64,000 nt of DNA from a virus. Its lineage: Duplodnaviria; Heunggongvirae; Uroviricota; Caudoviricetes. The notes under the pieces are model-generated. The model made no database searches. It was not told the origin of the DNA and saw nothing but the letters and a program-made list of their open reading frames with translations. Below are positions 5,476 through 60,932 of the stretch, in pieces. The stretch is from IMG/VR virus record IMGVR_UViG_3300037257_000073, one strand, 5' to 3'. Made by a program: the position numbers and the translations under genes. The first letter of the stretch is position 1; each line of letters begins with the position of its first letter.

Positions 5476-5847
5476 CTATTTATTTGTGAATAATTTACTT
5501 ACTTGTTTACCATCATATAAACCAGCGTGATATTGTTTAAAATGTTTCATACATTCTCCAACTGAATTAAATTTATATTCATTTAGAATATCTTTAATAT
5601 CTAAATCATTTAATTGTTGTGGTAAGAATTGTTCAAGTATAACATTTTCTTCTAAGTTAGTATTACATTCAATGTTACTAGCTATCATCTTCTTAAGAAC
5701 TGAAACAACTTCCTCGTCTGTAGCAATGTAACCTGCTACTTTCTTAGGACCTTTTTCAATTCTTTCAATTTCTCCAAGAACTACTCCTAAAAGTGTTCTT
5801 GTTTCTCGGTTAGTGAGCCTATGCTCTATTATTTGCTCTTTCAGCAT
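5476..5847 (-). CDS. hypothetical protein
   Basis: ORF. Confidence 0.4.
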   Translation of the reverse strand: MLKEQIIEHRLTNRETRTLLGVVLGEIERIEKGPKKVAGYIATDEEVVSVLKKMIASNIECNTNLEENVILEQFLPQQLNDLDIKDILNEYKFNSVGECMKHFKQYHAGLYDGKQVSKLFTNK

Positions 5848-9046: not shown

Positions 9047-9055
9047 ATATAGAAG

Positions 9056-9142
9056 CGTACACGGCAGGATTCGAACCTGCGGTGGAATATTATTCACCAG
9101 GTTAACAGCCTGGACCTGTCGACCAACTAAGGCAACGTGTAC
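9056..9142 (-). tRNA. tRNA-Asn(GTT)-like with an atypical 16-nt variable arm
   Basis: perfect acceptor GTACACG/CGTGTAC; anticodon arm CCAGG-CTGTTAA-CCTGG. Confidence 0.5.
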
Positions 9143-11732: not shown

Positions 11733-12677
11733 TCATACATTATGTACAATTATTTGTAAATCAGCAAATTGTGTGATTAACTTCTTATGACCATTAATAA
11801 AATCTCTAGCTGACATAACCTTTTTATTAGGTAATTGTAATGAAACAATCTGAAGACTACTTTTATTACAATTTATAAAAAGTTTATTATTTTCAACACA
11901 AATTAATTCTCCATCTAAGAAATCACCTTTAACACGTCCAGTATACATACATGCATCTTTAATTTTAACTTCAGTATTGTTATCTGGTAAATAAAAGAAT
12001 ACTCCGTGATTCGATTCATATGCCTTCATTTTTGCATATACATCATCAACATTTTTATTAAAATCAAGTAAACAATCATCTTTAGTTATTTTACAACAAT
12101 ATGTAGCTTCACTTTCTATCTGTGGTCTTAAAATAACTCCACGAGTATATTTAGTGATTGTTAGAAGAATATTTTCAGCAGCTAAGTTTGATAATTGATC
12201 AAGAAGCATAATATATCCCATTCCTACAGGTAGATACATTTTACGTTGAGTAATAATACTTCCAGCATCTACAGCAGCATTCATTTTAATAAATGTAACT
12301 CCTGTTTCAGAATCTCTATTCAAAATAGCAGCTTGAATACAAGAAGCACCTCTATACTTCGGTAATAATGAACCATGAATATTAATTGCACCATATTTAG
12401 CAGAATCAAGTATTTTCATTTTAATTATTTGTCCATAAGATGCAACAACAATTAAATCAAAATCAGTACTAATTATACGATGTTCAAGTTCATTAATATC
12501 ATTAGCAGTATATACTAAACAACCTAAAGCTTTACCAGCAATATAAATAGGTGTATTTTGTACTACTCTACCGAAACGTCGTGGTGGTGTTGTTATAACT
12601 GTAACTTGATAAATTTCATGTAATTTTTTTAATGCTGGAACTCCAAAAATTCCATTACCAATAAATAATATCTTCAT
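11733..12677 (-). CDS. fmt: methionyl-tRNA formyltransferase
   Basis: N-terminal MKILFIGNG..FGVP and the formyltransferase signature NIHGSLLPKYRGASCIQ; 314 aa with a C-terminal domain; the ORF ends on TGA. Confidence 0.8.
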   Translation of the reverse strand: MKILFIGNGIFGVPALKKLHEIYQVTVITTPPRRFGRVVQNTPIYIAGKALGCLVYTANDINELEHRIISTDFDLIVVASYGQIIKMKILDSAKYGAINIHGSLLPKYRGASCIQAAILNRDSETGVTFIKMNAAVDAGSIITQRKMYLPVGMGYIMLLDQLSNLAAENILLTITKYTRGVILRPQIESEATYCCKITKDDCLLDFNKNVDDVYAKMKAYESNHGVFFYLPDNNTEVKIKDACMYTGRVKGDFLDGELICVENNKLFINCNKSSLQIVSLQLPNKKVMSARDFINGHKKLITQFADLQIIVHNV

Positions 12678-13093: not shown

Positions 13094-13508
13094 ATATTCC
13101 TTTTAAATACCAATAATCTTCACATTTTTTAGAATATGATTTACATTCATTTTCAATATGTCTCCAATTCTTTCTTACAAAAGAAGTTTCTTCATATTTA
13201 AAATAAGTTTTACCATCTATATAACTCTCGGGTTGTAAAAATCTAAATCCTTCAACTTCTATTTCTTTACGTTCAAAATTATATTTAGGTTTATCAGGAA
13301 AAATCGGAGGAGTTATAATCTGATTCCAACTTTTAGCTGAATGTTCTTTACGTCGACCATATTGAAAAGTGTAAGGATTATAATAATTCTTACTATTCCA
13401 TCGTTTGTCATATCTTTCACATACTGAAAGTTGAATCATTGCAGTTTTATGAACATTAGGGCCATTTAATTTAACTCCTATTCTTTTTAAATAATCTAAA
13501 CATTTCAT
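13074..13508 (-). CDS. hypothetical protein
   Basis: ORF. Confidence 0.4.
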   Translation of the reverse strand: MKCLDYLKRIGVKLNGPNVHKTAMIQLSVCERYDKRWNSKNYYNPYTFQYGRRKEHSAKSWNQIITPPIFPDKPKYNFERKEIEVEGFRFLQPESYIDGKTYFKYEETSFVRKNWRHIENECKSYSKKCEDYWYLKGIFDENNN

Positions 13509-13528
13509 TTTATCTATTTTTATATTTG

Positions 13529-13611
13529 TACTCGAGGTCGGACTCGAACCGACACATCTTTCGACATATGCTCCTAAGGCATACGCGTATTAACCATTTC
13601 GCCACTCAAGC
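13529..13611 (-). tRNA. tRNA-Leu(TAG), type II
   Basis: anticodon arm TATGC-CTTAGGA-GCATA. Confidence 0.6.
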
Positions 13612-13616
13612 ATTTG

Positions 13617-13697
13617 CACATCAGGTAGGATTTGAACCCACGAACCTTTCGGATTAGTTTTGGAGACTAACTACTTTAACCGCTTGTATACTGACAT
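13617..13697 (-). tRNA. tRNA-Trp(CCA)
   Basis: anticodon arm TTAGT-CTCCAAA-ACTAA. Confidence 0.55.
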
Positions 13698-13703
13698 ATT
13701 TGC

Positions 13704-13782
13704 TCCCCCAAGGAGGACTCGAACCCACATGTCTCTCGACATATTCCGAAGAATACGCGTCTGCCAATTACGCCATTGGGGA
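13704..13782 (-). other. aberrant tRNA-like element without a decodable anticodon loop
   Basis: good acceptor, D-arm and T-arm, but the anticodon region is two tetraloop hairpins (CGTATTC-TTCG-GAATATG and ATGTC-GAGA-GACAT). Confidence 0.4.
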
Positions 13783-13788
13783 ATTTAG

Positions 13789-13877
13789 TGGGGGCGGAGG
13801 GCTTCGAACCCCCATGTCTCACGACCGCTATGGTCTAACCTATATTTAGCTGCGGCTACCAATTTCGCCACACCCCC
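13789..13877 (-). other. aberrant type-II tRNA-like element (anticodon loop ATATAGG)
   Basis: acceptor GGGGGTG/CGCCCCC, Leu-like D-arm, 4-bp anticodon stem CTAA/TTAG, ~20-nt variable arm. Confidence 0.4.
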
Positions 13878-13893
13878 GATTGTTTTTTTTTTG

Positions 13894-13966
13894 TGATCTG
13901 ACTGGGATTTGAACCCAGAACCCCCGCCTTAAAAGGGCGATGCTCTACCAGTTGAGCTATCAGATC
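13894..13966 (-). tRNA. tRNA-Lys(TTT)
   Basis: perfect acceptor GATCTGA/TCAGATC; loop CTTTTAA. Confidence 0.7.
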
Positions 13967-13975
13967 TTGTAAATA

Positions 13976-14040
13976 ACCACTTGGTTGTAGCGACACTACC
14001 AAGTGGTTTGTTGCCGAAACAACAACGGTCCTAAACCGTA
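13976..14040 (-). ncRNA. three consecutive hairpins in the tRNA-Phe/tRNA-Lys spacer
   Basis: ACCACTTGGT/ACCAAGTGGT (10 bp), TTGTTG/CAACAA (6 bp), ACGGT/ACCGT (5 bp). Confidence 0.35.
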
Positions 14041-14042
14041 AG

Positions 14043-14115
14043 TGGACTCTGTTGGTTTTGATCCAACCTCTCATGCTCTTCAGGCATACGCTTTCACCAG
14101 ATTAGCTTAGAGTCC
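14043..14115 (-). tRNA. tRNA-Phe(GAA)
   Basis: acceptor GGACTCT/AGAGTCC; loop CTGAAGA. Confidence 0.65.
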
Positions 14116-14120
14116 TTAAA

Positions 14121-14900
14121 TTATATTTTATCCCATTCATCATCAGACAAACTATTTATTTCTTTCTTTGAAGAAGGTATATTAAAATGTTTACACCATT
14201 TTCTAATAGCATTATCTGATCTATTGTATAATTTACCAATATTAATAAATGTTTCTGTGCGAACTAAAGTTTTTAAATATTCACGAGTTATACCAAGTTC
14301 ATCGTAAAAATCATTAGCTATTCGTTTAGCAGAACAACTTAAACATAAACCACTTACAGAAGAACTTGTTATAGTATTACCACAAGAATTACAATATAAT
14401 GCATCTATAACTTTATCTTTAACATTTTTACCTTTATAATTATCAGTAAAAGCATGACAGTTTGGACATAATAATTTAAGATTATTTAATTCATTATTAG
14501 TTTTAATACCATCTATGTGGTGTGTTTCTAATGGAATAGGTTCTCCCATTCATTTAGTATTATCACAACATTCACATTTATGTTCTTTTAGATTATTTTT
14601 TAATAATTTATCTCTTAACTTACTTGTTTGTGTATATGCTGAATCTTTACAAAAGATTGTATCTAAAGTGTACACATTCTTAGTTTCATTTGAAGAATTT
14701 CTTTTAAAATGAATTGTGCTAATTTGATGTTTTTTTATCTTAGTTTGAATTGTTTCATAATTACCAGCAGTTAAAGGCAACCCATAATATCTACACACAT
14801 CTGCAAAAGAATAACTTTCTTTTACAATTTTTTCTAAATTTTCTTTTGAATATTTGTTTTCCATAAATTGAACTATTATATTAATAGTACAAAGATACAA
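14121..14900 (-). CDS. HNH homing endonuclease with one in-frame TGA at 14550-14552
   Basis: two adjacent same-frame ORFs; CxxC sits upstream of the TGA and HHIDG..N..LCPNCH downstream, so the HNH motif spans the TGA. Confidence 0.6.
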
Positions 14901-14970: not shown

Positions 14971-15507
14971 TTATTCAAATAATCCTGAAGGTGTATTATG
15001 AAATTTATTATATAAAACATCTAATGTATAGGATTCATTATCTTTATTAACAAATAATAATTCTTCATCAATTATTGTCGGAGTGTAATTCTCCTTTAAT
15101 ACTTGTAAAAATGATTTAGTTCTTGTTACTGTGCCCCCAAATCTTGGATCATCTCCATAATTAATGATATAAGTTCCTGACGATGGTGTCATACTAGCAA
15201 GAACATCATTATGAACATATTCTGATCTACCATCATGAGTTATTGTTTGACTAAATTCTTCAAGTAAACCTCTAATCATATCATTACTGATATTAAATTC
15301 ATTAGCTCCTGATATTTTATATTTATCCTCATCATTCATAGATTGACTACTCATAGTAATTGTTTGAACTTTTCCAAACAATCTACGCATGCTTTCAACA
15401 ACTCCAAAAAGAGGTCTTGGACCTCGTCCATTTAATGCATCTTCAAACCATTCTAAAGACTGCATTAATACTTTATCACCTACTTTATATCGCTCTGTAC
15501 CTCTCAT
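14971..15507 (-). CDS. tandem paralog family A, member 1
   Basis: N-terminal YKVGDKVLMQSLEWF; C-terminal NYTP..ID..YTLDVLYNKF. Confidence 0.5.
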   Translation of the reverse strand: MRGTERYKVGDKVLMQSLEWFEDALNGRGPRPLFGVVESMRRLFGKVQTITMSSQSMNDEDKYKISGANEFNISNDMIRGLLEEFSQTITHDGRSEYVHNDVLASMTPSSGTYIINYGDDPRFGGTVTRTKSFLQVLKENYTPTIIDEELLFVNKDNESYTLDVLYNKFHNTPSGLFE

Positions 15508-15862
15508 ATATTTCTTTTAAACTATATGCATCATTATTATCATTTATAAAATACAATCCACCTTCATCAATAAGTGGTGTATAATTCTTTTCTACATATT
15601 CAGGAAAAGATGAAGCTATTCCTTCAATCATATCATTACTAAAATTCCAATGACGTGGATCATCTACTAAGTGATATAAAGGTATATATGCATAACCTGC
15701 TTCATTATTTGAAATTACTTGTTCTTTACCAAAAAACTGACGCATATCATAAATTAATCCACCTTCAACAGCTACATGATTTTCCATCATTTCATCAAAC
15801 CAAGCTAATGATTTTAGTCTAACAACATCACCAATTTTATACTTCTTTAAAGAACTCATCAA
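15485..15862 (-). CDS. tandem paralog family A, member 2
   Basis: YKIGDVVRLKSLAWF ... YSLKEIYERY. Confidence 0.5.
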   Translation of the reverse strand: MMSSLKKYKIGDVVRLKSLAWFDEMMENHVAVEGGLIYDMRQFFGKEQVISNNEAGYAYIPLYHLVDDPRHWNFSNDMIEGIASSFPEYVEKNYTPLIDEGGLYFINDNNDAYSLKEIYERYRAI

Positions 15863-16295
15863 ATATTTCTTTTAAAGTAAATGAATTATTATCTTTATCA
15901 GTAAATGTTAAAGTTTCACCATCAAGAAATGGAGTATAATTCTTTTCAAGATGTTCAGGAAATTTATTTGGAGTAATAACATCCCATGAATATTGATCAG
16001 GATCAATTATATTTTCATGTCTATGTATTAATTCAGAAGTTTTTATATTATCAATCATTTGATCAGTATACGTATATTCATTATCACTACCACCACTGCA
16101 ACCTGCTAAAACATATCCACAATAATTTGTATCAACATGAGTAATAACTTGAATTGTTCCAAAATAAGGTCTCATATCACTAGCTAAACCTAATCTAACA
16201 TCACCTCTATCGTCATGTACATCAAACCAATCTTTAGATTTCAAATGTACACATTGTCCTACTTTATACTTAACTGTTGGTAGTGAATCTCTCAT
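15837..16295 (-). CDS. tandem paralog family A, member 3
   Basis: YKVGQCVHLKSKDWF ... FTLKEIFDEF. Confidence 0.5.
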   Translation of the reverse strand: MRDSLPTVKYKVGQCVHLKSKDWFDVHDDRGDVRLGLASDMRPYFGTIQVITHVDTNYCGYVLAGCSGGSDNEYTYTDQMIDNIKTSELIHRHENIIDPDQYSWDVITPNKFPEHLEKNYTPFLDGETLTFTDKDNNSFTLKEIFDEFFKEV

Positions 16296-16839
16296 ATAAC
16301 TGTGTTAAAGTAAATGAATTATTTTCATTATCTGTATAAGTTACAACTCCATCATAAGCAAATGGAACAAACTTCTCAACATATTGTATAAATGCTTTAA
16401 CGTGAATTGAAAGACTGTTTGAAAAACCTAATAATCCACTAAAATCAGTAGTACCTCTCATTCTACCTCTCAATTCTTGTAATGAAAGTTGTTCATACAT
16501 ACTTAAAGCACTTGACATACTTGAAGTACCTGAAGTTAAACTAGATCCTATGGTATTATACATACTTACTAATCTATCATATCCATTAGTTGTAATTGGC
16601 ATATCATAATACTTATCAACCATATCTATTGAGAAATACCAACCTTTAGAATCACTTTCAATATTAAATAATTCAACACCTCTTAATTGAGATCCTCCAA
16701 TTTTTACAGATTTTATAATATGTTCTTTACCAAAATATTGTTCCATATCATTAGTCAATATTGGCAAGAAATCTGCTTTTTTCTCATCATACCATTCTTT
16801 AGGTTTTAATAAAACCTTCATTCCTTGTTTTAAAATCAT
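16270..16839 (-). CDS. tandem paralog family A, member 4
   Basis: MKVLLKPKEWY ... FTLTQLYERF. Confidence 0.5.
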   Translation of the reverse strand: MILKQGMKVLLKPKEWYDEKKADFLPILTNDMEQYFGKEHIIKSVKIGGSQLRGVELFNIESDSKGWYFSIDMVDKYYDMPITTNGYDRLVSMYNTIGSSLTSGTSSMSSALSMYEQLSLQELRGRMRGTTDFSGLLGFSNSLSIHVKAFIQYVEKFVPFAYDGVVTYTDNENNSFTLTQLYERFTTNS

Positions 16840-22329: not shown

Positions 22330-22830
22330 CTATTCTTTAGGGAATTCTAGTTCTTGTTGAACTTTTTTTGGTGGAACTTTATAGTTCATTGGCATCATTG
22401 TTATAATACCATTTCTTACATACATCTCAGCACAACGATTATCATCATCAAATGCCATAAGAATGTCATACTCTTCTTGAAGCTTCTTTAAAGTAGCTTC
22501 TTTCGATAAATATGATTTAGTATAGTCTATACCTTGTTTCATGAATAATTTATATTCATCATCATACAGAAGTCCTCCGTCTTCTAGTTTTTCAATTAAC
22601 CATGCTTCGGTTTGAGGTCTTACTCGTTCAGGTCTCCCTGTAACAAGTAAAATCATATATCCTTGCATAGCTAGTGATTGCATTAGTTCACCAACACTTT
22701 TAATAAGCACGTCACCTGATAAATCACTCCAATCAAAAGGACTTCTGTTAGTATGATACAAAGTAGTAAGATCTAAATCAAAGATTACTGCTTTTTCTTT
22801 TTCCATAAGTTTTTTAAACTTGGTTTCCAT
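22330..22830 (-). CDS. HAD-superfamily phosphatase
   Basis: VIFDLDLTT ... LLVTGRPE ... AFDDDN. Confidence 0.5.
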   Translation of the reverse strand: METKFKKLMEKEKAVIFDLDLTTLYHTNRSPFDWSDLSGDVLIKSVGELMQSLAMQGYMILLVTGRPERVRPQTEAWLIEKLEDGGLLYDDEYKLFMKQGIDYTKSYLSKEATLKKLQEEYDILMAFDDDNRCAEMYVRNGIITMMPMNYKVPPKKVQQELEFPKE

Positions 22831-28157: not shown

Positions 28158-28172
28158 TTAATTTCAATTTAA

Positions 28173-28579
<407 letters not shown>

Positions 28580-50362: not shown

Positions 50363-50773
50363 TTATTTATATCGAGGTAAATCTTGTTTAATTTTACTAT
50401 ATTCATTTCCTCCAATCATTAATCCATTTTTGTAAGCATGAATTTTATTTTCAGAATCAGTACACCATTCAAGATTTACTAATGAATTATTTAATTTATT
50501 TCCATCTATATGATTTACTTGTAAATTTTCAAAGATTGGTCTAAATGTTAACATTACTATTCTATGAACATGTAATGTTTTTATTCCATTTCTATTTTCA
50601 GCAGTAAATCTTAAATATCCAAATTTATTAGGAGATAATTTTAATATTTTCCCTTTTAATTTTCTTCCAATTTTAGATATTCTATTTAAACTTCTTATTC
50701 TTCCTAAATTAGAAACTTGATATATTTCTTCATATTCAGGAATGTCTTTTCAGATTTCTTCTATTTCTTGCAT
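50363..50773 (-). CDS. HNH homing endonuclease (NUMOD4-type N-terminus) with an in-frame TGA at 50750-50752
   Basis: MQEIEEI-TGA-KDIPEYEEIYQVSNLGRIRS; the TGA lies where the Trp of the conserved WKDIPGYEGLYQVSNLGRVRS motif sits; HNH VNHIDGNKLNNSLVNLEW. Confidence 0.6.
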
Positions 50774-54805: not shown

Positions 54806-54885
54806 ACTATCTAGATTTAATGATGTTAGTTATCATCACTGCAGCTATCGCTACAATGATGATGATTCCTAAGGATAATTGCATG

Positions 54886-55206
54886 TTACAATTTATTAAT
54901 GAATTTGTAATAAGAATCAAAATTAGAATTACCTCGATCAGGAGACATATATTCACATTCCCAACCAGCTTTGTGATAAAGAGATTCGAAATCTAAATAT
55001 TTTTTATCATATAAATGTCTTTCAAATGATGAACGATTTTCATATTCAGTTTGATCCGGATGATTAAAAGCTTTAGTAATGATTTCTTTCTTTGTAATTG
55101 TAAAAGACCCACCATTATATCTTTCTTCAATCAATTGATTCACTGAATCAATGATATAATCAGGTAAAATACGTTTAACCTGATTTGGTCTAATTGGTTC
55201 AATCAT
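54886..55206 (-). CDS. hypothetical protein
   Basis: ORF. Confidence 0.4.
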   Translation of the reverse strand: MIEPIRPNQVKRILPDYIIDSVNQLIEERYNGGSFTITKKEIITKAFNHPDQTEYENRSSFERHLYDKKYLDFESLYHKAGWECEYMSPDRGNSNFDSYYKFINKL

Positions 55207-55354
55207 TTTACTTGTAAGATATTAAAGTATCAGACTTTGCATTCCATGCTTTACGCATAATTTGCTTTTCATTTTGAGATGAGGTTAATATTTTACCTGC
55301 TTTAACCTTTTTGTGTTTAGTAACCACTTCGGATAATACAATAGTTTTTTCCAT
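55205..55354 (-). CDS. small basic protein (49 aa)
   Basis: ORF MEKTIVLSEVVTKHKK..., sits directly downstream of repeat R1. Confidence 0.3.
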
Positions 55355-55361
55355 TTTTAAT

Positions 55362-55435
55362 TTGTTTTGAGTTTATACATAATGTGTTTCGTCCAGCCTC
55401 TTCAGTAAACTTTTTAGCCTCTTCTGGATGAGGTG
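55362..55435. promoter_or_regulatory. conserved intergenic repeat R1
   Basis: TTTTGAGTTT + variable hairpin + TTTCGTCCAG + CCAG..CTGG hairpin. Confidence 0.45.
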
Positions 55436-55559
55436 AATAAAAACGCAGCGGACGTTATAACCGCTGCGTTTAAATCAAATAATAATACTAATATACTTCA
55501 CATTTCACAATGTTCTGTATAAATCCAATAAAAATTTACAAATACTAACTATGGCTTAA

Positions 55560-56048
55560 TTATTTTAAGAGAATTTTAGCAAATGATGTATCATTCTTCA
55601 TTTTCTCAATGAGTTCTTTAGAAGACATTTTCTTGGCTTCATCAAGTAATTTATTTTGTTGATCGACAACACCTAAGCTTGTTTTAGCATCCGCAGACAT
55701 TGCTTTTAATTCGGATATAACAAATGTACTTAGTTCTTTAGGAATTTGTTTACATGTTGAATCAGTTGTAACATAATTCATAGCAGTTCCACCACCAATG
55801 ATTAACAACGTATCTTTTTTACTTGGTATGAATGCATGAGCAAGTAAACAAATTGAGAATATTGGAATTATCCAACGTAAAGGTTTACTACAACGATCAT
55901 TTAAATCTTCATCACTTTCGATAAATGAAACCAGCTTCAATATAACATTGAGTGCTAAAAGAATTCCGAAGATAATTAATACTCCTAAAAGTACATGTTT
56001 GAAACCATCGACTACTGTGAGCCAATAAAAGAGTTTAATATAATCCAT
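55560..56048 (-). CDS. membrane protein
   Basis: TM segments. Confidence 0.4.
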   Translation of the reverse strand: MDYIKLFYWLTVVDGFKHVLLGVLIIFGILLALNVILKLVSFIESDEDLNDRCSKPLRWIIPIFSICLLAHAFIPSKKDTLLIIGGGTAMNYVTTDSTCKQIPKELSTFVISELKAMSADAKTSLGVVDQQNKLLDEAKKMSSKELIEKMKNDTSFAKILLK

Positions 56049-56055
56049 TTTGTTT

Positions 56056-56364
56056 TTATTTATTTAATAATTTATTCATATATAAATCAAAATTTTCTTT
56101 ACATGAAGTGAGAACTCCAACTTGATATGGTAATTCATTAGAAATATGAATATTATAATTTTTATCTTCTATTTTTAATAGTTCAGAATTTATAAATTCA
56201 GCAATACCTTTTGGAAGCCAAGCAGATGCTCTAATATGAGGTTTATCTTTAAATAAAACTTCACCTACAATTTGATCACTTTCAGGTACATTTGGATTTT
56301 GTGATTCATATACTCTAATTAATATATCACATTCATAACTTTTATTTAATGTAATTTTATTCAT
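56056..56364 (-). CDS. hypothetical protein
   Basis: ORF. Confidence 0.4.
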   Translation of the reverse strand: MNKITLNKSYECDILIRVYESQNPNVPESDQIVGEVLFKDKPHIRASAWLPKGIAEFINSELLKIEDKNYNIHISNELPYQVGVLTSCKENFDLYMNKLLNK

Positions 56365-56513
56365 ATTTTAAGTTTTGAAATAAGTGTGAAAGGTTGCACC
56401 TTTTATAAGAATTACCAACTGTAGCGCGTACACCTAATGTACCTATCTTACACACTAATTAGATTAAAAGAGTTTCCTCCCCATATTTCTATGGTTTGGA
56501 AACTCGAAAGAGT

Positions 56514-56708
56514 TTACTTTAAATAAAGACCGGTTAACATAGCAAATACAAACATTACTTCACAAAAATGAAATAATCCTATAAATATTACGAAAATCTC
56601 GAATTCTTTAAGTACGACACGATGTAACCAATTAAATAAATGGGTTATTATTGTATGAGCGATAACAATCAACAATACTCCAAATGCGGGTTCGAATGTG
56701 ATATGCAT
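56514..56708 (-). CDS. small membrane protein
   Basis: hydrophobic. Confidence 0.3.
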   Translation of the reverse strand: MHITFEPAFGVLLIVIAHTIITHLFNWLHRVVLKEFEIFVIFIGLFHFCEVMFVFAMLTGLYLK

Positions 56709-56784
56709 TATTTAAATAGTGTTAAGATAAATAATCCAACTGACACACACATTATTACAATAGCAATAGCTTTAAATAGTTTCA

Positions 56785-56961
56785 TTACTTACAAGTTTTA
56801 GTACGATAAATTGCACATGTTTTACCTAACATATCAAAGTTTTCTTCGGATGTAGCAAGCTCTCTTCTTTGATAAGCTGCTTGTCTTGGAGTTAAACCTG
56901 ATATTATTTCTACTTTTACATTGTTACCTGTTATGGCGATGATTGATTTAGTTTTTGACAT
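56785..56961 (-). CDS. small protein (58 aa)
   Basis: ORF trimmed to MSKTKSII..., immediately downstream of R2. Confidence 0.35.
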   Translation of the reverse strand: MSKTKSIIAITGNNVKVEIISGLTPRQAAYQRRELATSEENFDMLGKTCAIYRTKTCK

Positions 56962-56971
56962 AATCTTATTT

Positions 56972-57046
56972 GTTTTTGAGTTTGATATGTTTAAACATAT
57001 TTCGTCCAGTCTCATCAGAAACTATTTTATACTCTACTGGTTGAGT
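56972..57046. promoter_or_regulatory. conserved intergenic repeat R2
   Basis: TTTTGAGTTTG + palindrome ATATGTTTAAACATAT + TTTCGTCCAG + hairpin CCAGT..ACTGG. Confidence 0.45.
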
Positions 57047-58036
57047 TAATAAAAAAGAGAGTACACACTATATGTCCAAATGCGACGATGTGTACTCCCT
57101 TAGTGTTTGTTATCAAAATTAATATGATAACCATTGTTTACTTCGCGGTACATCACCGATAAAATCGGTGAATCTAACCGGGAAGCATTCTTTCGTAATA
57201 AAGAGCTTCACCCTTTTGCTCCCATAGCCAGTTTCAGGACGATATTACGTTGGCTTGTTTTTGACACCAGCAATTAGCACGGCATCGGTTTTAGTATACC
57301 TATCTTTTATTAATTTGTCTTCAAGGATTGACAGAATGGATGCTATTTGTACATATAGCCGTTATACCTTACACTCGGAAGTTCCACACTTTCATCGGAG
57401 GATTGCGCACAGGTTTTCATTATACTTATTTGCAGTTAGTATTATACTGTTTAAAGGCATCAAACCACCATACTGAATCTCTTCTTGATTAGTTATTCAG
57501 ATATGCTTCTTATATAAGAGATTATATTATTTATAACGTTATTATATAGAGAATATACATATCCAACCGTTTATCTGATGAAAGTTGCTTGATGCTAAGA
57601 GTTTAAAGTATATTTACAATAATTGCAGCTAATAAAAATCCAGCTGCGGCAGCATATAAATGCGACATAATATGATTTTCTTTATCAAAACATATTAATC
57701 CCATAAATATATCAAATGCTAAACATAGACTGAGTATAATTACCATTAGCTTATGTATTTAAACATTAATATTCCACAATCAATAAGTAAAGAAAGCATT
57801 ACATATCCCATTCGTGATTCTTCTTGCCATTTGATAATATTGAATTGTAGTCCAATAAATGAACCTAACAAGTAAAAGATAATCCATGGTGCAATGTATA
57901 ATAGAGTTTTTTCAGTTTTAGTCATGTTTTTTGATTTTACATTCTATTGATATAAACATTGCACACAATTCTACAAATAAATAGAAGATTAAGAACGGTG
58001 ATAAACAAATTACTATTGCTTGAGTTTTAGTTAACA

Positions 58037-58330
58037 TTATAGATCTTCATTTTTAAATTTGGTGATGAAATTATCTAACCATTTAAATCGGATATTAAAG
58101 CGAACTCTTTTTATGAGTTTATCGCATAACATACAGATAAAAACAATTAATAATAATCCAATCATAAATATCACTATTAATGTATTTATTCCAGGAATAA
58201 ACCACATAAAATCACATTCAGCTTCATATTTACTAAATATATCTAAATACTTCGGAGATGCAATTCTATATAAGACACTACACAGAACAATGGATAATAA
58301 ATATCCAACAATTAATAAGAATAGTACCAT
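58037..58330 (-). CDS. small membrane protein
   Basis: hydrophobic. Confidence 0.3.
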   Translation of the reverse strand: MVLFLLIVGYLLSIVLCSVLYRIASPKYLDIFSKYEAECDFMWFIPGINTLIVIFMIGLLLIVFICMLCDKLIKRVRFNIRFKWLDNFITKFKNEDL

Positions 58331-58502
58331 GATTATTGTAATGGAATGTGAAACTTAATACACAACATAAGTACAATCCCACACATTATAAATCCACACG
58401 CAAAACCTCCAAGTAATACACCTGTAAGATCTTTTTCAATATAATATTTTCTTGTTAGAAATATATCGAAACATAATAAAAGTAATAATAATATTATCAT
58501 GA

Positions 58503-58775
58503 TTATTTGATTTTAAATTTATCAATTGGATACTCGTACGATGTTATATCATCATCATACACATAAACCTTGATTTTATCCCGAGATTTAATGTGTGTGA
58601 TGTAATATGTGTAAACCAATTTATGTTTTGGTTTAGTTATTGATTCAACTTGTGTAGCAATTGTGGGTTTTGTAGCTTGATGCATATGCCCACTTCTTGC
58701 TTCACAAGATGTTAATACTCGTAAAAGAATAATAACCAAAACTATTACAATAATATTAACAATAATTTTAATCAT
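58503..58775 (-). CDS. small membrane-anchored protein
   Basis: N-terminal TM. Confidence 0.3.
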   Translation of the reverse strand: MIKIIVNIIVIVLVIILLRVLTSCEARSGHMHQATKPTIATQVESITKPKHKLVYTYYITHIKSRDKIKVYVYDDDITSYEYPIDKFKIK

Positions 58776-59044
58776 TATTCTTTAGGTCTAATTGAGTTAA
58801 CACTAATACTATCGAATCCAACAAACGTTTGTTCTTTAAGTATTTGTACAGCTTCAATTGGAGTACGAGCACTAATGAATGTAGAACGTTTTAGAAACTT
58901 ACCAGAAAGATATCCTTTGTAAGTTATTGTGTAAGTTTTTGATAATACTGGAGCATGTCTTCTTGATTGAGAATTACATGCAGTAAAAGAAACAATTAAT
59001 ACTATTGCTACAACAATATTAATAATAAAGATTTTTAATTTCAT
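58775..59044 (-). CDS. small membrane-anchored protein
   Basis: N-terminal TM. Confidence 0.3.
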   Translation of the reverse strand: MKLKIFIINIVVAIVLIVSFTACNSQSRRHAPVLSKTYTITYKGYLSGKFLKRSTFISARTPIEAVQILKEQTFVGFDSISVNSIRPKE

Positions 59045-59045
59045 T

Positions 59046-59267
59046 TTAAACTGATTTTTCTAAATGAATAGCAATGTTAACAATTAATAATAGTATTATA
59101 ATACCATATAATATACATATCTTTGGTAATTTAAAGTATGTAAATACATCAACTATAAGAGCTACTAAAATTGCAACCATTACCACTATTAAAATGATAA
59201 CGATTGTAATTAATATTATGTTTAGCATTTGATTAATTTTTATGAATATTAGATGCAATATGATCAA
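59046..59267 (-). CDS. small membrane protein
   Basis: hydrophobic. Confidence 0.3.
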   Translation of the reverse strand: MIILHLIFIKINQMLNIILITIVIILIVVMVAILVALIVDVFTYFKLPKICILYGIIILLLIVNIAIHLEKSV

Positions 59268-59306
59268 ATAAAAATATTGCCATTATTATTAAACCTATTG
59301 GTCAAA

Positions 59307-59444
59307 TTAATGATGTTGTAAAAATGCTCCGATATTTTGACCGTTATTTAAATACATACTACCAGGAAAATTATATTCTAATACAAGTAATAATATTGGA
59401 CATAATATTAATCCAATAATATAAATAATGATTAATGTTATCAT
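59307..59444 (-). CDS. small membrane peptide (45 aa)
   Basis: MITLIIIYIIGLILCPILLLVL..., downstream of R3. Confidence 0.3.
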   Translation of the reverse strand: MITLIIIYIIGLILCPILLLVLEYNFPGSMYLNNGQNIGAFLQHH

Positions 59445-59454
59445 AATAAATAAG

Positions 59455-59540
59455 TTTTTGAGTTTGACGGGAGTGATGAGCTCCCCGTTTCGTCCTAGTC
59501 TCTTCAGAAACTGATGTTATACTCTCCTAGGCTGAGTCAT
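59455..59540. promoter_or_regulatory. conserved intergenic repeat R3
   Basis: TTTTGAGTTTG + hairpin ACGGGAG..CTCCCCGT + TTTCGTCCTAG + hairpin CCTAG..CTAGG. Confidence 0.45.
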
Positions 59541-59811
59541 ATTGTTCTTACATCACTGTAATACTAAATATAGTTGGGATAGAAATAATGATAATTAGAA
59601 AGAAATACAGACTGATGAGGAATGTATATTGTAAAAAAGACTCATGATAGGCTCCGGACTATTATGCACCGTATGCAACACCGTCGGACGACGGTTAATC
59701 AAATCATAAGTCTTTTATGAAAGTAAACATAATTGAACCCGGGATATCTGTACCGTACTAAAAACCATCAGATCTAATGATTTTTTCAATTATGTTTATG
59801 AGAGAGTATTG

Positions 59812-60039
59812 CTACTTTTTATGTTTATCTATAGTATTTATCATTTGATAAAACTTATAATAGATTATACCTATTGATGCAACAAATAATACAAATGGCC
59901 AAAATAATGACATCATTCCATAACCCAATGCATAATCAGCAGGATCATCACATTCTAAAACATTTGGAAAGAACTTTGTGAAAAGCATAATAATGAATGG
60001 GAATAACGGAATTCCAATGAGATAAATTGTTATTATCAT
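59812..60039 (-). CDS. small membrane protein
   Basis: hydrophobic. Confidence 0.3.
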   Translation of the reverse strand: MIITIYLIGIPLFPFIIMLFTKFFPNVLECDDPADYALGYGMMSLFWPFVLFVASIGIIYYKFYQMINTIDKHKK

Positions 60040-60103
60040 AATTTAATAAGTTTAATAAATCTCCTAATCACCTTACGGCTTTCGGAGACTCAAAAGTGTG
60101 TGA

Positions 60104-60433
60104 TTAAATACCTAATTCTTTTAGTTTACGATAAACTGTTCGTTCACTTAATCCAAGTTTTTCAGCAATTACTTTATTTGTATAATAACCTAGACTCTTA
60201 AGAATTATAATATTCTCAGATTCAGTTCTAACACCTGTAATTTCAAGCTTATTTATTGAACTAATTATTGTAAAACTTGAAAGATCAACAGCATTTGTAA
60301 TAGCTAATAACTCTTTTACAGTTATATTAGATATAATCTCTAAAGTTTGTGATTTGAAATCAACCTTAATTTTTTCCATTATTACCTGGTTTATAAGATT
60401 TATAAACTTTGTGTAATGTGTGACGTGCATCAC
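60104..60433 (-). CDS. HTH DNA-binding protein (sigma region-4 / Fis-like HTH)
   Basis: C-terminal VIAEKLGLSERTVYRKLKELGI. Confidence 0.45.
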   Translation of the reverse strand: MMHVTHYTKFINLINQVIMEKIKVDFKSQTLEIISNITVKELLAITNAVDLSSFTIISSINKLEITGVRTESENIIILKSLGYYTNKVIAEKLGLSERTVYRKLKELGI

Positions 60434-60474
60434 TAGATGATGCTAAATATACAGTTTTATTCATTGTGATATGT

Positions 60475-60570
60475 GTTTTGAGTTTTACGAGAGTTTTAGA
60501 GTTTCCTCTTATTCTCTCGTTTCGTCTAGATCTCATCGGAAACCAATGTTATACTCTCTCTAGCTGAGTT
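60475..60570. promoter_or_regulatory. conserved intergenic repeat R4
   Basis: TTTTGAGTTTT + hairpin ACGAGAG..CTCTCGT + TTTCGTCTAG + hairpin CTAGA..TCTAG. Confidence 0.45.
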
Positions 60571-60638
60571 GTATGTTATCATTTTACAATGACTAATACC
60601 AACGTTCAAAATTACTTAAATGAATAATATATATTGTT

Positions 60639-60932
60639 TTATTTTTTAGAATTATGATTATAAACTTGTTGCATTTTCATAGCTTTATCAAGTTCTTTTT
60701 GAATAATTCCATAATATATTGGTTGAGTTGTAGTAAATATATATTTACCTCGTGATATATTTGTGATTAATTCACAAGATTTGAGAAGATTAAATATACT
60801 TGACGAATAAGGACATTTAGTTTCTTTTAAAATTTTTGTTAATTCAATTTTACTAAAAGAATCAATTTCTTTTGATATGATATTATTAACACATGATATA
60901 ACTAATTTAGCATTTTCTTCAGATGTTTTCAT
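60639..60932 (-). CDS. hypothetical protein
   Basis: ORF trimmed to MKTSEEN..., 8 nt downstream of partial repeat R5 (60940-60966). Confidence 0.35.
   Translation of the reverse strand: MKTSEENAKLVISCVNNIISKEIDSFSKIELTKILKETKCPYSSSIFNLLKSCELITNISRGKYIFTTTQPIYYGIIQKELDKAMKMQQVYNHNSKK

Follow-up and report, generated by a model that had tools for sequence, protein, structure and literature searches.

Two tRNA-Leu-like genes lacking an anticodon loop in a phage tRNA array as candidate non-decoding tRNA mimics

The tRNA arrays of phages are now viewed as weapons against tRNA-cleaving bacterial defences, and to our knowledge every known example of such phage tRNAs still functions as a tRNA. Defence nucleases cut the anticodon arm (PMC12445682, PMC13056530), and phage tRNAs counter tRNA-cleaving defences (PMC10264068, PMC11464382, PMC11555353). 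Irregular or allo-tRNA polycistrons, together with inactive allo-tRNA(UAU) species, have been described in soil bacteria (Mukai et al., PMC5389517; reviewed in PMC7609411), and tRNA-like processing signals exist in the form of the plant mitochondrial t-elements (PMC1920247). Here, we describe two adjacent tRNA-like genes, elements A and B, in a 64,000-nucleotide stretch of DNA from a virus of the class Caudoviricetes (IMG/VR record IMGVR_UViG_3300037257_000073), referred to in its full length as the window. Judged by their sequences, both are derived from a class-II tRNA-Leu(UAG) and are predicted to be unable to decode normally. The reading that we favour, tentatively and with somewhat less than even confidence, takes A and B for non-decoding mimics of tRNA-Leu whose structure is maintained and which would be matured from the array and act off the ribosome, most plausibly as uncleavable decoys. 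A maintained non-decoding tRNA body, if true, would point to a second strategy, in which a host factor is bound or titrated and a cut tRNA is not replaced.

Both genes were found by ARAGORN on the minus strand, A at 13702..13783 (82 nt, called 'tRNA-??? (tc)') and B at 13788..13877 (90 nt, called 'tRNA-Tyr(ata)'), and both matched the Rfam tRNA model, in agreement with the positions given for them in a preliminary description of this DNA. The tRNA-model check of the Infernal type that had been proposed there was run locally and gave 32.5 bits (E 2e-5) for B and 28.2 bits (E 3e-4) for A, where the gathering score of the model (RF00005) is 29 bits and the real neighbouring tRNAs score 43-72 bits; B was reported in this local scan and not in a 23-kb scan. 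In the order of the minus strand, tRNA-Phe and tRNA-Lys(ttt) (13966..13893, ARAGORN) are followed by B, A, tRNA-Trp(CCA) (13616..13697, minus strand; ARAGORN and Rfam, 43.5 bits) and an ordinary tRNA-Leu(UAG), or Leu(tag), adjoining them (13528..13611, minus strand; ARAGORN and Rfam, 52.4 bits), the Lys and Trp genes being the neighbours named earlier, and successive genes from B to Leu(tag) lie only 4-5 nt apart. The comparison of homologous loci that had also been recommended showed that both elements recur in two related contigs, L011 and L036, which together with the window make up the three known variants (n=3) of a cassette that A and B form with the Trp gene. Neither element is a chance match, because both recur in these three variants and in at least eight near-identical metagenome contigs.

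The acceptor stem, the D-arm (with G18G19), the long variable arm and the T-arm (UUCGA) of tRNA-Leu are retained in A as well as in B, but a closed structure takes the place of the 7-nt anticodon loop in each. Measured against a decoding tRNA, the 7-bp acceptor, the G18G19 D-arm and the UUCRA T-loop are present (ARAGORN, Rfam alignment), and what is missing is a 5-bp stem with a 7-nt loop (U33, anticodon, purine 37) that is conserved among homologues. Measured against tRNA-Leu, the class-II body, the long variable arm and the Leu-type D-arm are all there. Because they have no anticodon loop, A and B cannot enter decoding, which bears out the earlier view of both as tRNA-shaped genes that cannot decode normally, their arms being closed and the one apparent anticodon fold not being conserved.

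Element A reads, as RNA, UCCCCAA UG GCGU AAUUGGCAG ACGC G UAUUC UUCG GAAUA U GUC GAGA GAC AU GUGGG UUCGAGU CCUCC UUGGGGG A. It keeps a 7-bp acceptor stem (UCCCCAA/UUGGGGG, beginning with U1), the D-arm, the long variable arm and the T-arm, and in place of the anticodon loop it has a capped arm, UAUUC-UUCG-GAAUA (13742..13755, minus strand), consisting of a 5-bp stem and a C-G-closed UUCG tetraloop, with a length of 14 nt against the normal 17 nt. This hairpin, which can be read directly from the sequence, is also the minimum-free-energy fold of the arm and is unchanged in the window, L011 and L036. ARAGORN gave A a two-base 'anticodon' within a 6-nt loop, and Rfam aligned its anticodon loop as a deletion. 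A scan of bacterial genomes, one per species, for the D-arm (TTGGCAGACGCG) and variable-arm (TGTCGAGAGAC) strings of A separated by a gap of 10-20 nt returned normal tRNA-Leu genes only, namely 16 genes (15 Leu(TAG) and one CAA) in which both strings are identical to those of A and flank a 17-nt anticodon arm in every case. Because the D-arm and variable arm of A match these bacterial Leu genes, A is, by this comparison, a tRNA-Leu(UAG) body in which the 17-nt anticodon arm has been turned into a 14-nt hairpin. Within the window A is most closely related to the Leu(tag) gene beside it, and compared with the stem of that gene (UAUGC/GCAUA) the arm stem of A carries a G-C to U-A double change. 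In the preliminary description, two tetraloop hairpins, CGTATTC-TTCG-GAATATG and ATGTC-GAGA-GACAT, were thought to replace the anticodon region. Both strings are present and the first contains the abnormal arm (TATTC-TTCG-GAATA, 13742-13755), but the second, GTC-GAGA-GAC, is the ordinary long variable arm of a class-II tRNA-Leu, as found in the 16 bacterial genes.

Element B has the acceptor stem GGGGGUG/CGCCCCC and the discriminator A73, and over its full length it is 73.5-77.8% identical to phage tRNA-Leu(TAG) genes (Pseudomonas phage RVTF4 and T5-like Klebsiella phages). In the alignment, the anticodon TAG of these relatives matches a TAG within AUAUAGGUU of B, a loop that differs by one base from AUUUAGGUU of Leu(UAG) tRNAs; the base preceding UAG in B is A and not U33, and there are additional bases on either side. 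Folding of the arms of the window and L011 copies showed that both adopt one common architecture in place of the anticodon arm (13827..13850, minus strand), a two-helix arm spanning 24-28 nt. In the window it consists of the outer stem GCUA/UAGC, an internal loop of AAUAUA (5′) and A (3′) and the inner hairpin GGU-UAG-ACC, and in L011 of the outer stem GCUG/CAGC, an internal loop of CAAAUAUA (5′) and A (3′) and the inner hairpin GGUC-AAA-GACC, which has been lengthened by a U-to-C change and an AA insertion. The ARAGORN fold of window B is a different one, with a 4-bp CUAA/UUAG stem and the loop ATATAGG, giving U33, the anticodon AUA and G37. This CTAA/TTAG stem and its loop had been noted earlier, and the non-standard anticodon AUA had been taken from them; the letters are as quoted, but the stem is destroyed in the L011 homologue (L011:464-557). 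Because the fold cannot form in this diverged homologue, the AUA anticodon is an artefact of folding a single sequence. An intron in B, either of group I or of the bulge-helix-bulge type, was considered and rejected, since the extra 9-13 nt are too short and Rfam found no intron family match; B also has loops of 6-8 nt versus 1 nt around a helix of 3-4 bp, not two 3-nt bulges around a 4-bp helix. Another 'Tyr(ata)' call by ARAGORN, in a related phage contig (L037:8774-8866), is a tRNA-Lys(UUU) with an 18-nt hairpin, ACUA-GUGA-UAGU, in the D-loop, and because of this example such calls in these phages can be taken as misfolds of tRNAs with inserts.

The minimum-free-energy folds of the whole elements as single sequences were uninformative (z-scores -0.8 to -2.7), and no sequence complementary to the B loop, as in an antisense target, was found in the window. 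The differences between the variants were compared with the folds of the arms and stems. In the T-stem of A, the U50-C64 mismatch of the window is U-A in L011, G51-U63 is A-U and G52-C62 is G-U. In B, L011 has U-A for U6-G67 and G-U for G10-C25 of the window, and the outer stem of the arm shows a compensatory change from A-U in the window to G-C in L011. The sole change in Trp, found in L036, turns G3-U70 into A-U. Altogether, a standard pair survives each of the paired-site substitutions in A, B and Trp (7/7), and the U-C mismatch is repaired by a further one. Over the three variants, 100% of the alignment cells are paired in B and 97.2% in A, in a count from which MAFFT gap placement hides the compensatory pair of B, which is visible in direct alignments. 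A random paired-site substitution keeps pairing with a probability of 0.18-0.43, depending on transition bias, and the chance of the 7/7 outcome is estimated at roughly 0.0001-0.03, the upper end applying if there are transitions only. Free decay, as in a tRNA pseudogene, was not seen, as 0/7 paired-site substitutions, a small sample, break a pair. Because every paired-site substitution keeps pairing, the pattern in A and B suggests a maintained structure and argues against decaying pseudogenes.

B, A and Trp(CCA) form a three-gene accessory cassette, because its flanks differ from variant to variant and close relatives are without the trio. Trp is always beside A and B among the cassette variants. 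Upstream there is either Lys or an intact HNH gene, and downstream there are two unrelated Leu(tag) genes. The order in L011, which was reached through the adjacent methionyl-tRNA formyltransferase gene (fmt; the two fmt are 67% identical), is Lys, a B-homologue (94 nt, called 'Ile(aat)'), an A-homologue, Trp and Leu(tag), whereas L036 came from a single metagenome scan. The fmt protein of L013 is identical to that of L011, yet in L013 Lys is directly followed by Leu(tag); the same arrangement without B, A and Trp is found in L015, and in L016 and L017 Phe is followed by Leu(tag), again without the three genes. Between the window and L011 the identity of the cassette is ~97%, and the flanking tRNAs have diverged much more. 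At least eight metagenome contigs, drawn from several samples, contain the window phage itself at an identity of at least 99.7% over 13500-14130. Routes through neighbouring proteins (a 144-aa open reading frame (ORF), fmt and HNH) led to the same phage, to one useful relative, L011, and to short contigs ending before the cassette, and a search of IMG/VR by the fmt protein gave no locus. The Leu(tag) gene that follows the cassette in L011 (L011:743-819) is only 77 nt long and has a short variable region, which is unusual for a bacterial-type tRNA-Leu.

The third member of the cassette, tRNA-Trp(CCA), is 82 nt long and has a long variable arm of 12 nt (with UCC-GAAA-GG), A1-U72, G73 and CCA, with a body most like tRNA-Tyr of Firmicute phages. 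It is 100% identical in L011 and carries one pair-improving change in L036. The window and L011 copies contain G3-U70, known as the identity pair for alanine, and L036 has A3-U70. A search by Trp pattern found this type of tRNA in seven IMG/VR contigs, none of them with A or B.

How could such genes act? RNase P, the 3′ processing enzymes, the CCA-adding enzyme and elbow-binding proteins use the parts of a tRNA that A and B keep, and leucyl-tRNA synthetase (LeuRS) does not use the anticodon. Since genuine tRNA genes of the same strand are only 4-5 nt away from A and B, and since both elements retain the elbow and the acceptor/T-arm half, they would probably be part of the array transcript, be excised by RNase P and the enzymes of 3′ processing and receive a CCA end. 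B could perhaps also be leucylated, because A73 is present and the anticodon is not read by LeuRS. A73 is a main determinant for LeuRS (PMC2377443). B has A73 in the window and L011, and L036 has one extra C in the run. The processed RNAs may then act as sponges, or as decoys that cannot be cleaved, for host factors recognising the body of a tRNA, among them nucleases of the anticodon arm and other defence toxins directed at tRNAs. An arms-race context for this comes from the window, with its tmRNA, fmt, YqeY-like and Pnkp-phosphatase-like ORFs and long-armed Asn tRNA, and from the long-armed Lys, His and Val tRNAs of related phage contigs; the decoy reading fits because the cassette is accessory and the phage array is full of structurally altered tRNAs.

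Several points weigh against this interpretation. The covariation is thin and comes from three variants only, with the arm of B differing in L011 alone, and the shuffle controls were without power. The T-stem of window A has its U-C mismatch, and the discriminator of A varies, with G73 in both L011 and L036 against A73 in the window, which speaks against a strict need for leucylation and makes leucylation of A doubtful. The conservation of the cassette may reflect recent transfer near homing endonucleases and not selection, because the cassette is ~97% identical while the fmt proteins are 67% identical. IMG/VR and the cultured phages yielded nothing similar to A or B: five DNA patterns, covering A, B and a generic UUCG-capped Leu scaffold, had no match in IMG/VR, and distant blastn against cultured phages gave generic tRNA-Leu and tRNA-Tyr similarity only, with no match covering at least 80% of the query. 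The decoy role itself is conjecture.

The main rival, which we consider rather unlikely, is that A and B are functionless pseudo-tRNAs, dead duplicates of tRNA-Leu(UAG) that look folded because the cassette has recently spread with a useful Trp gene by way of homing endonucleases. Consistent with this, their Rfam scores of 28.2 and 32.5 bits are low beside the 43-72 bits of real neighbours, the window and L011 copies are separated by ~10 events in B and ~5 in A against 0 in Trp, the cassette directly borders HNH genes in the window, L011 and L036, and its similarity between phages far exceeds that of its flanks, a pattern that recent transfer would produce; the variable discriminator of A and the T-stem mismatch of its window copy point the same way. 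Dead duplicates are harder to reconcile with 7/7 paired-site substitutions that keep pairing and a further one that repairs a mismatch, with an arm of B whose architecture is kept through a compensatory pair and a coordinated substitution and insertion, or with a trio that is intact in three different contexts. Nor is the loop of A a random scar, as the hairpin that it forms is perfect, with UUCG closed by C-G and a stem that carries a double change. Among the roles listed as candidates in the preliminary description, that of tRNA-like RNAs is the best description of A and B, and plain pseudo-tRNAs are disfavoured by the paired-site substitutions. The tRNA shape could instead serve processing or stability, guiding RNase P and RNase Z cuts or stabilising the transcript for the packed neighbours, especially Trp. 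The 4-5 nt spacers among B, A, Trp and Leu(tag), the lack of any promoter-like or terminator-like site between Lys(ttt) and Leu(tag), and selection that seems to act on stems and not on loop sequence would agree with such elements, but relatives such as L013 have Lys and then Leu(tag) without spacers of this kind, the same tRNA-Trp occurs in the seven IMG/VR contigs without A or B, and ordinary tRNAs would suffice, leaving the capped anticodon arms unexplained. We regard this role as very unlikely.

Transfer RNAs reserved for cell-wall synthesis are a precedent for non-ribosomal carriers, and A and B might likewise be charged by LeuRS and carry leucine to an aminoacyl-tRNA-dependent transferase resembling L/F-transferase, the Fem proteins or cyclodipeptide synthases. 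The kept Leu scaffold and the A73 of B (window, L011 and possibly L036) and of window A, a main LeuRS determinant as cited above, would suit a carrier; against this, A has G73 in two of three variants and a Pfam scan of ~40 window ORFs revealed no transferase of this kind, and we give the idea a slim chance. That scan also found no RNA ligase and no CCA-adding enzyme, the only matches of a related kind being fmt, the YqeY-like ORF and the Pnkp-phosphatase-like ORF. Least probable of all, in our estimate, is that one or both elements are real decoders or their precursors, with B reading UAU through AUA or being trimmed or spliced to a Leu(UAG) with a 7-nt loop or to a UAU-anticodon tRNA reading AUA, and A reading UGA or CGA through the 6-nt loop CUUCGG. 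The ARAGORN fold of window B does have U33, AUA and G37, its AUAUAGGUU is one base off AUUUAGGUU of Leu(UAG), the related-phage tRNA-Lys with the 18-nt D-loop hairpin shows that such phages carry tRNA genes with extra hairpins, and the in-frame TGA codons at Trp positions described below need a decoder where the window holds no UCA tRNA. The AUA fold is, however, impossible in L011, A and not U33 precedes UAG in B, the 9-13 nt insert is too short for a group I intron and is not a bulge-helix-bulge, and neither an RNA ligase nor a splicing nuclease was found among the ~40 scanned ORFs. The array, moreover, already holds Tyr(GUA) and Leu(UAG) tRNAs, and the C-G-closed UUCG of A is a tetraloop and not an anticodon loop.

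The preliminary description had also held that TGA is recoded in this DNA, a claim that fits the homing-endonuclease genes, which have in-frame TGA at conserved Trp positions, and not the core genes, which use TGA as a stop. The 80 minus-strand ORFs of at least 100 codons end in 59 TAA, 12 TGA and 9 TAG and use TGG for Trp 216 times, and fmt stops at TGA where its homologues end, readthrough of which would cross a tRNA-Tyr gene. The core genes are in line with the standard code. A single in-frame TGA (14550-14552) is present in the HNH gene at 14121-14900, at a position that is Trp in 9/9 homologues, the closest of which use TGG, and the NUMOD4/HNH_3 gene at 50363-50773 has a TGA (50750-50752) within its EIWKDI motif. 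In the relatives, in-frame TGA occurs twice in an HNH gene, once in a PD-(D/E)XK endonuclease gene and five times, against a single TGG, in a GIY-YIG endonuclease gene (the homing-endonuclease genes concerned lie at L011:836-1273, L011:3306-3701 and L015:734-1369), while the neighbouring core genes have none. The in-frame stops in homing-endonuclease genes are thus TGA in 10/10 cases, all at Trp-like positions, and because of this the pattern is not one of random decay; it looks as if recoding may be limited to the homing-endonuclease gene class. An opal (UGA) suppressor tRNA was looked for and rejected, as there is no UCA in a 7-nt loop, and no UCA anticodon at all, among the 24 window tRNAs, A and B. 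The 10 kb to the left of the window contain no tRNA genes. The only Trp tRNA in the window is the odd member of the cassette, and nothing was found linking A or B to the reading of UGA. In-frame TGA that is confined to homing-endonuclease genes in phages of otherwise standard code suggests gene-class-specific recoding, which may matter as much as A and B.

These observations allow a wider proposal, which is bolder and to our mind improbable, that B, A and Trp are a self-contained module for counter-defence or recoding. Processed, CCA-tailed A and B, the latter perhaps leucylated, would be the first natural anticodon-less viral tRNAs and would serve as uncleavable decoys for a host nuclease or toxin specific to class-II tRNA bodies, while the long-armed Trp tRNA would be resistant and might also read the UGA of the neighbouring homing-endonuclease genes as Trp. 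A and B would also provide a natural anticodon-less tRNA-Leu for probing LeuRS. The class is easily overlooked, as its members come out of annotation pipelines as 'Tyr(ata)', 'undetermined' or 'pseudo'.

The window has a G+C content of 30.5% and carries nearly all of its long ORFs on the minus strand. ARAGORN predicted 24 tRNA genes, confirmed by Rfam, between 7929 and 20155, all on the minus strand, as well as a tmRNA at 28173-28579 on the same strand, likewise confirmed by Rfam. The best records in the phage collection, with 50-63% protein identity for one large ORF, were an uncultured 462-kb phage (LR756500.1) and Cellulophaga phages. A scan for promoters and terminators gave a number of sites not above that of shuffled sequence; the stretch from Lys(ttt) to Leu(tag) has none, and the nearest terminator-like hairpin lies upstream, between Phe and Lys. 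Accessory genes for translation and RNA repair are, besides the tmRNA (28171-28579, 107 bits), the YqeY-like ORF at 5476-5847, fmt at 11733-12677, whose closest cellular relatives are in Patescibacteria (35-40% identity), and the Pnkp-phosphatase-like ORF at 22330-22830. The tRNA-Asn at 9055-9142 (minus strand) has class-I identity but a long variable arm like that of class-II tRNAs, and related phage contigs contain Lys, His and Val tRNAs of the same kind (L043:13379-13469, L041:871-959 and 1797-1881, L038:2847-2933, L042:1021-1105); these long-armed tRNAs of class-I identity measure 85-91 nt. Other odd tRNAs of the relatives are a long-armed one with an 8-nt anticodon loop CAGCCAAG (L043:11788-11868), an amber-suppressor-like tRNA(CUA) (L037:6209-6284) and a tRNA-like match with the loop AUUUUCAGC that ARAGORN missed (L037:2037-2107). 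Four tandem ORFs at 14971-16839 (minus strand; 178, 125, 152 and 189 aa) look like paralogues with the common motifs 'W(F/Y)D...FG...Q' and a tail of 'NYTP' or 'F(T/S)L', and Pfam gave no match for the one of them that was searched. A region of ~6 kb at ~54830-60640 has few minus-strand ORFs of at least 120 codons, with all three stops scattered in every frame, in contrast to the dense coding in the rest of the window.

Compared with known systems, A and B are closest in body to a canonical class-II tRNA-Leu(UAG), sharing the acceptor/T-arm half, the G18G19 D-arm, the long variable arm and, in B, A73, but they have no 7-nt anticodon loop, its place being taken by the UUCG tetraloop of A and the two-helix arm of B, and A further differs in starting with U1 and in a discriminator that varies between variants. 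Species 1 and 2 of the phage T4 tRNA cluster, which are stable non-tRNA RNAs matured with the cluster, resemble them in being stable RNAs within a phage tRNA cluster, but are not near-complete cloverleaves from a specific tRNA. The allo-tRNA polycistrons likewise consist of odd tRNA-like genes with long variable arms that are clustered and come from soil and peat data, some of them thought to be unused in translation and tied to mobile or toxin-antitoxin elements; allo-tRNAs, however, have 8/4 or 9/3 acceptor/T-stems and keep their anticodon loops, whereas A and B are 7/5 with capped arms. Membership of the allo-tRNA or tRNA-Sec-like group was rejected on this geometry (7/5 with D-stems of 3-4 bp, not 8/4, 9/3, 8/5 or a 6-bp D-stem) and for want of a tRNA-Sec match. 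The tRNA-like domain of tmRNA, the YrlA Y RNAs of bacteria and phages (PMC4201824) and small tRNA-like RNAs of the mascRNA type are, like A and B, L-shaped mimics without a working anticodon that are handled by tRNA enzymes, but A and B stand alone, have the size of a tRNA and are clearly of recent descent from a single tRNA species. A tmRNA, including a two-piece one, and a YrlA RNA were also rejected as candidates, the only Rfam match being tmRNA_permuted at 14 bits (E 0.42), with no match to YrlA. The phage tRNAs that escape tRNA-cleaving defences (PMC10264068, PMC11464382, PMC11555353) share with A and B changed anticodon arms or loops and an accessory distribution that varies among relatives, but those tRNAs, which are engaged in an arms race with host nucleases, still decode and rescue translation, whereas A and B could act by binding only. 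Taken together, A and B are best described as tRNA-derived non-decoding RNAs of a new variant.

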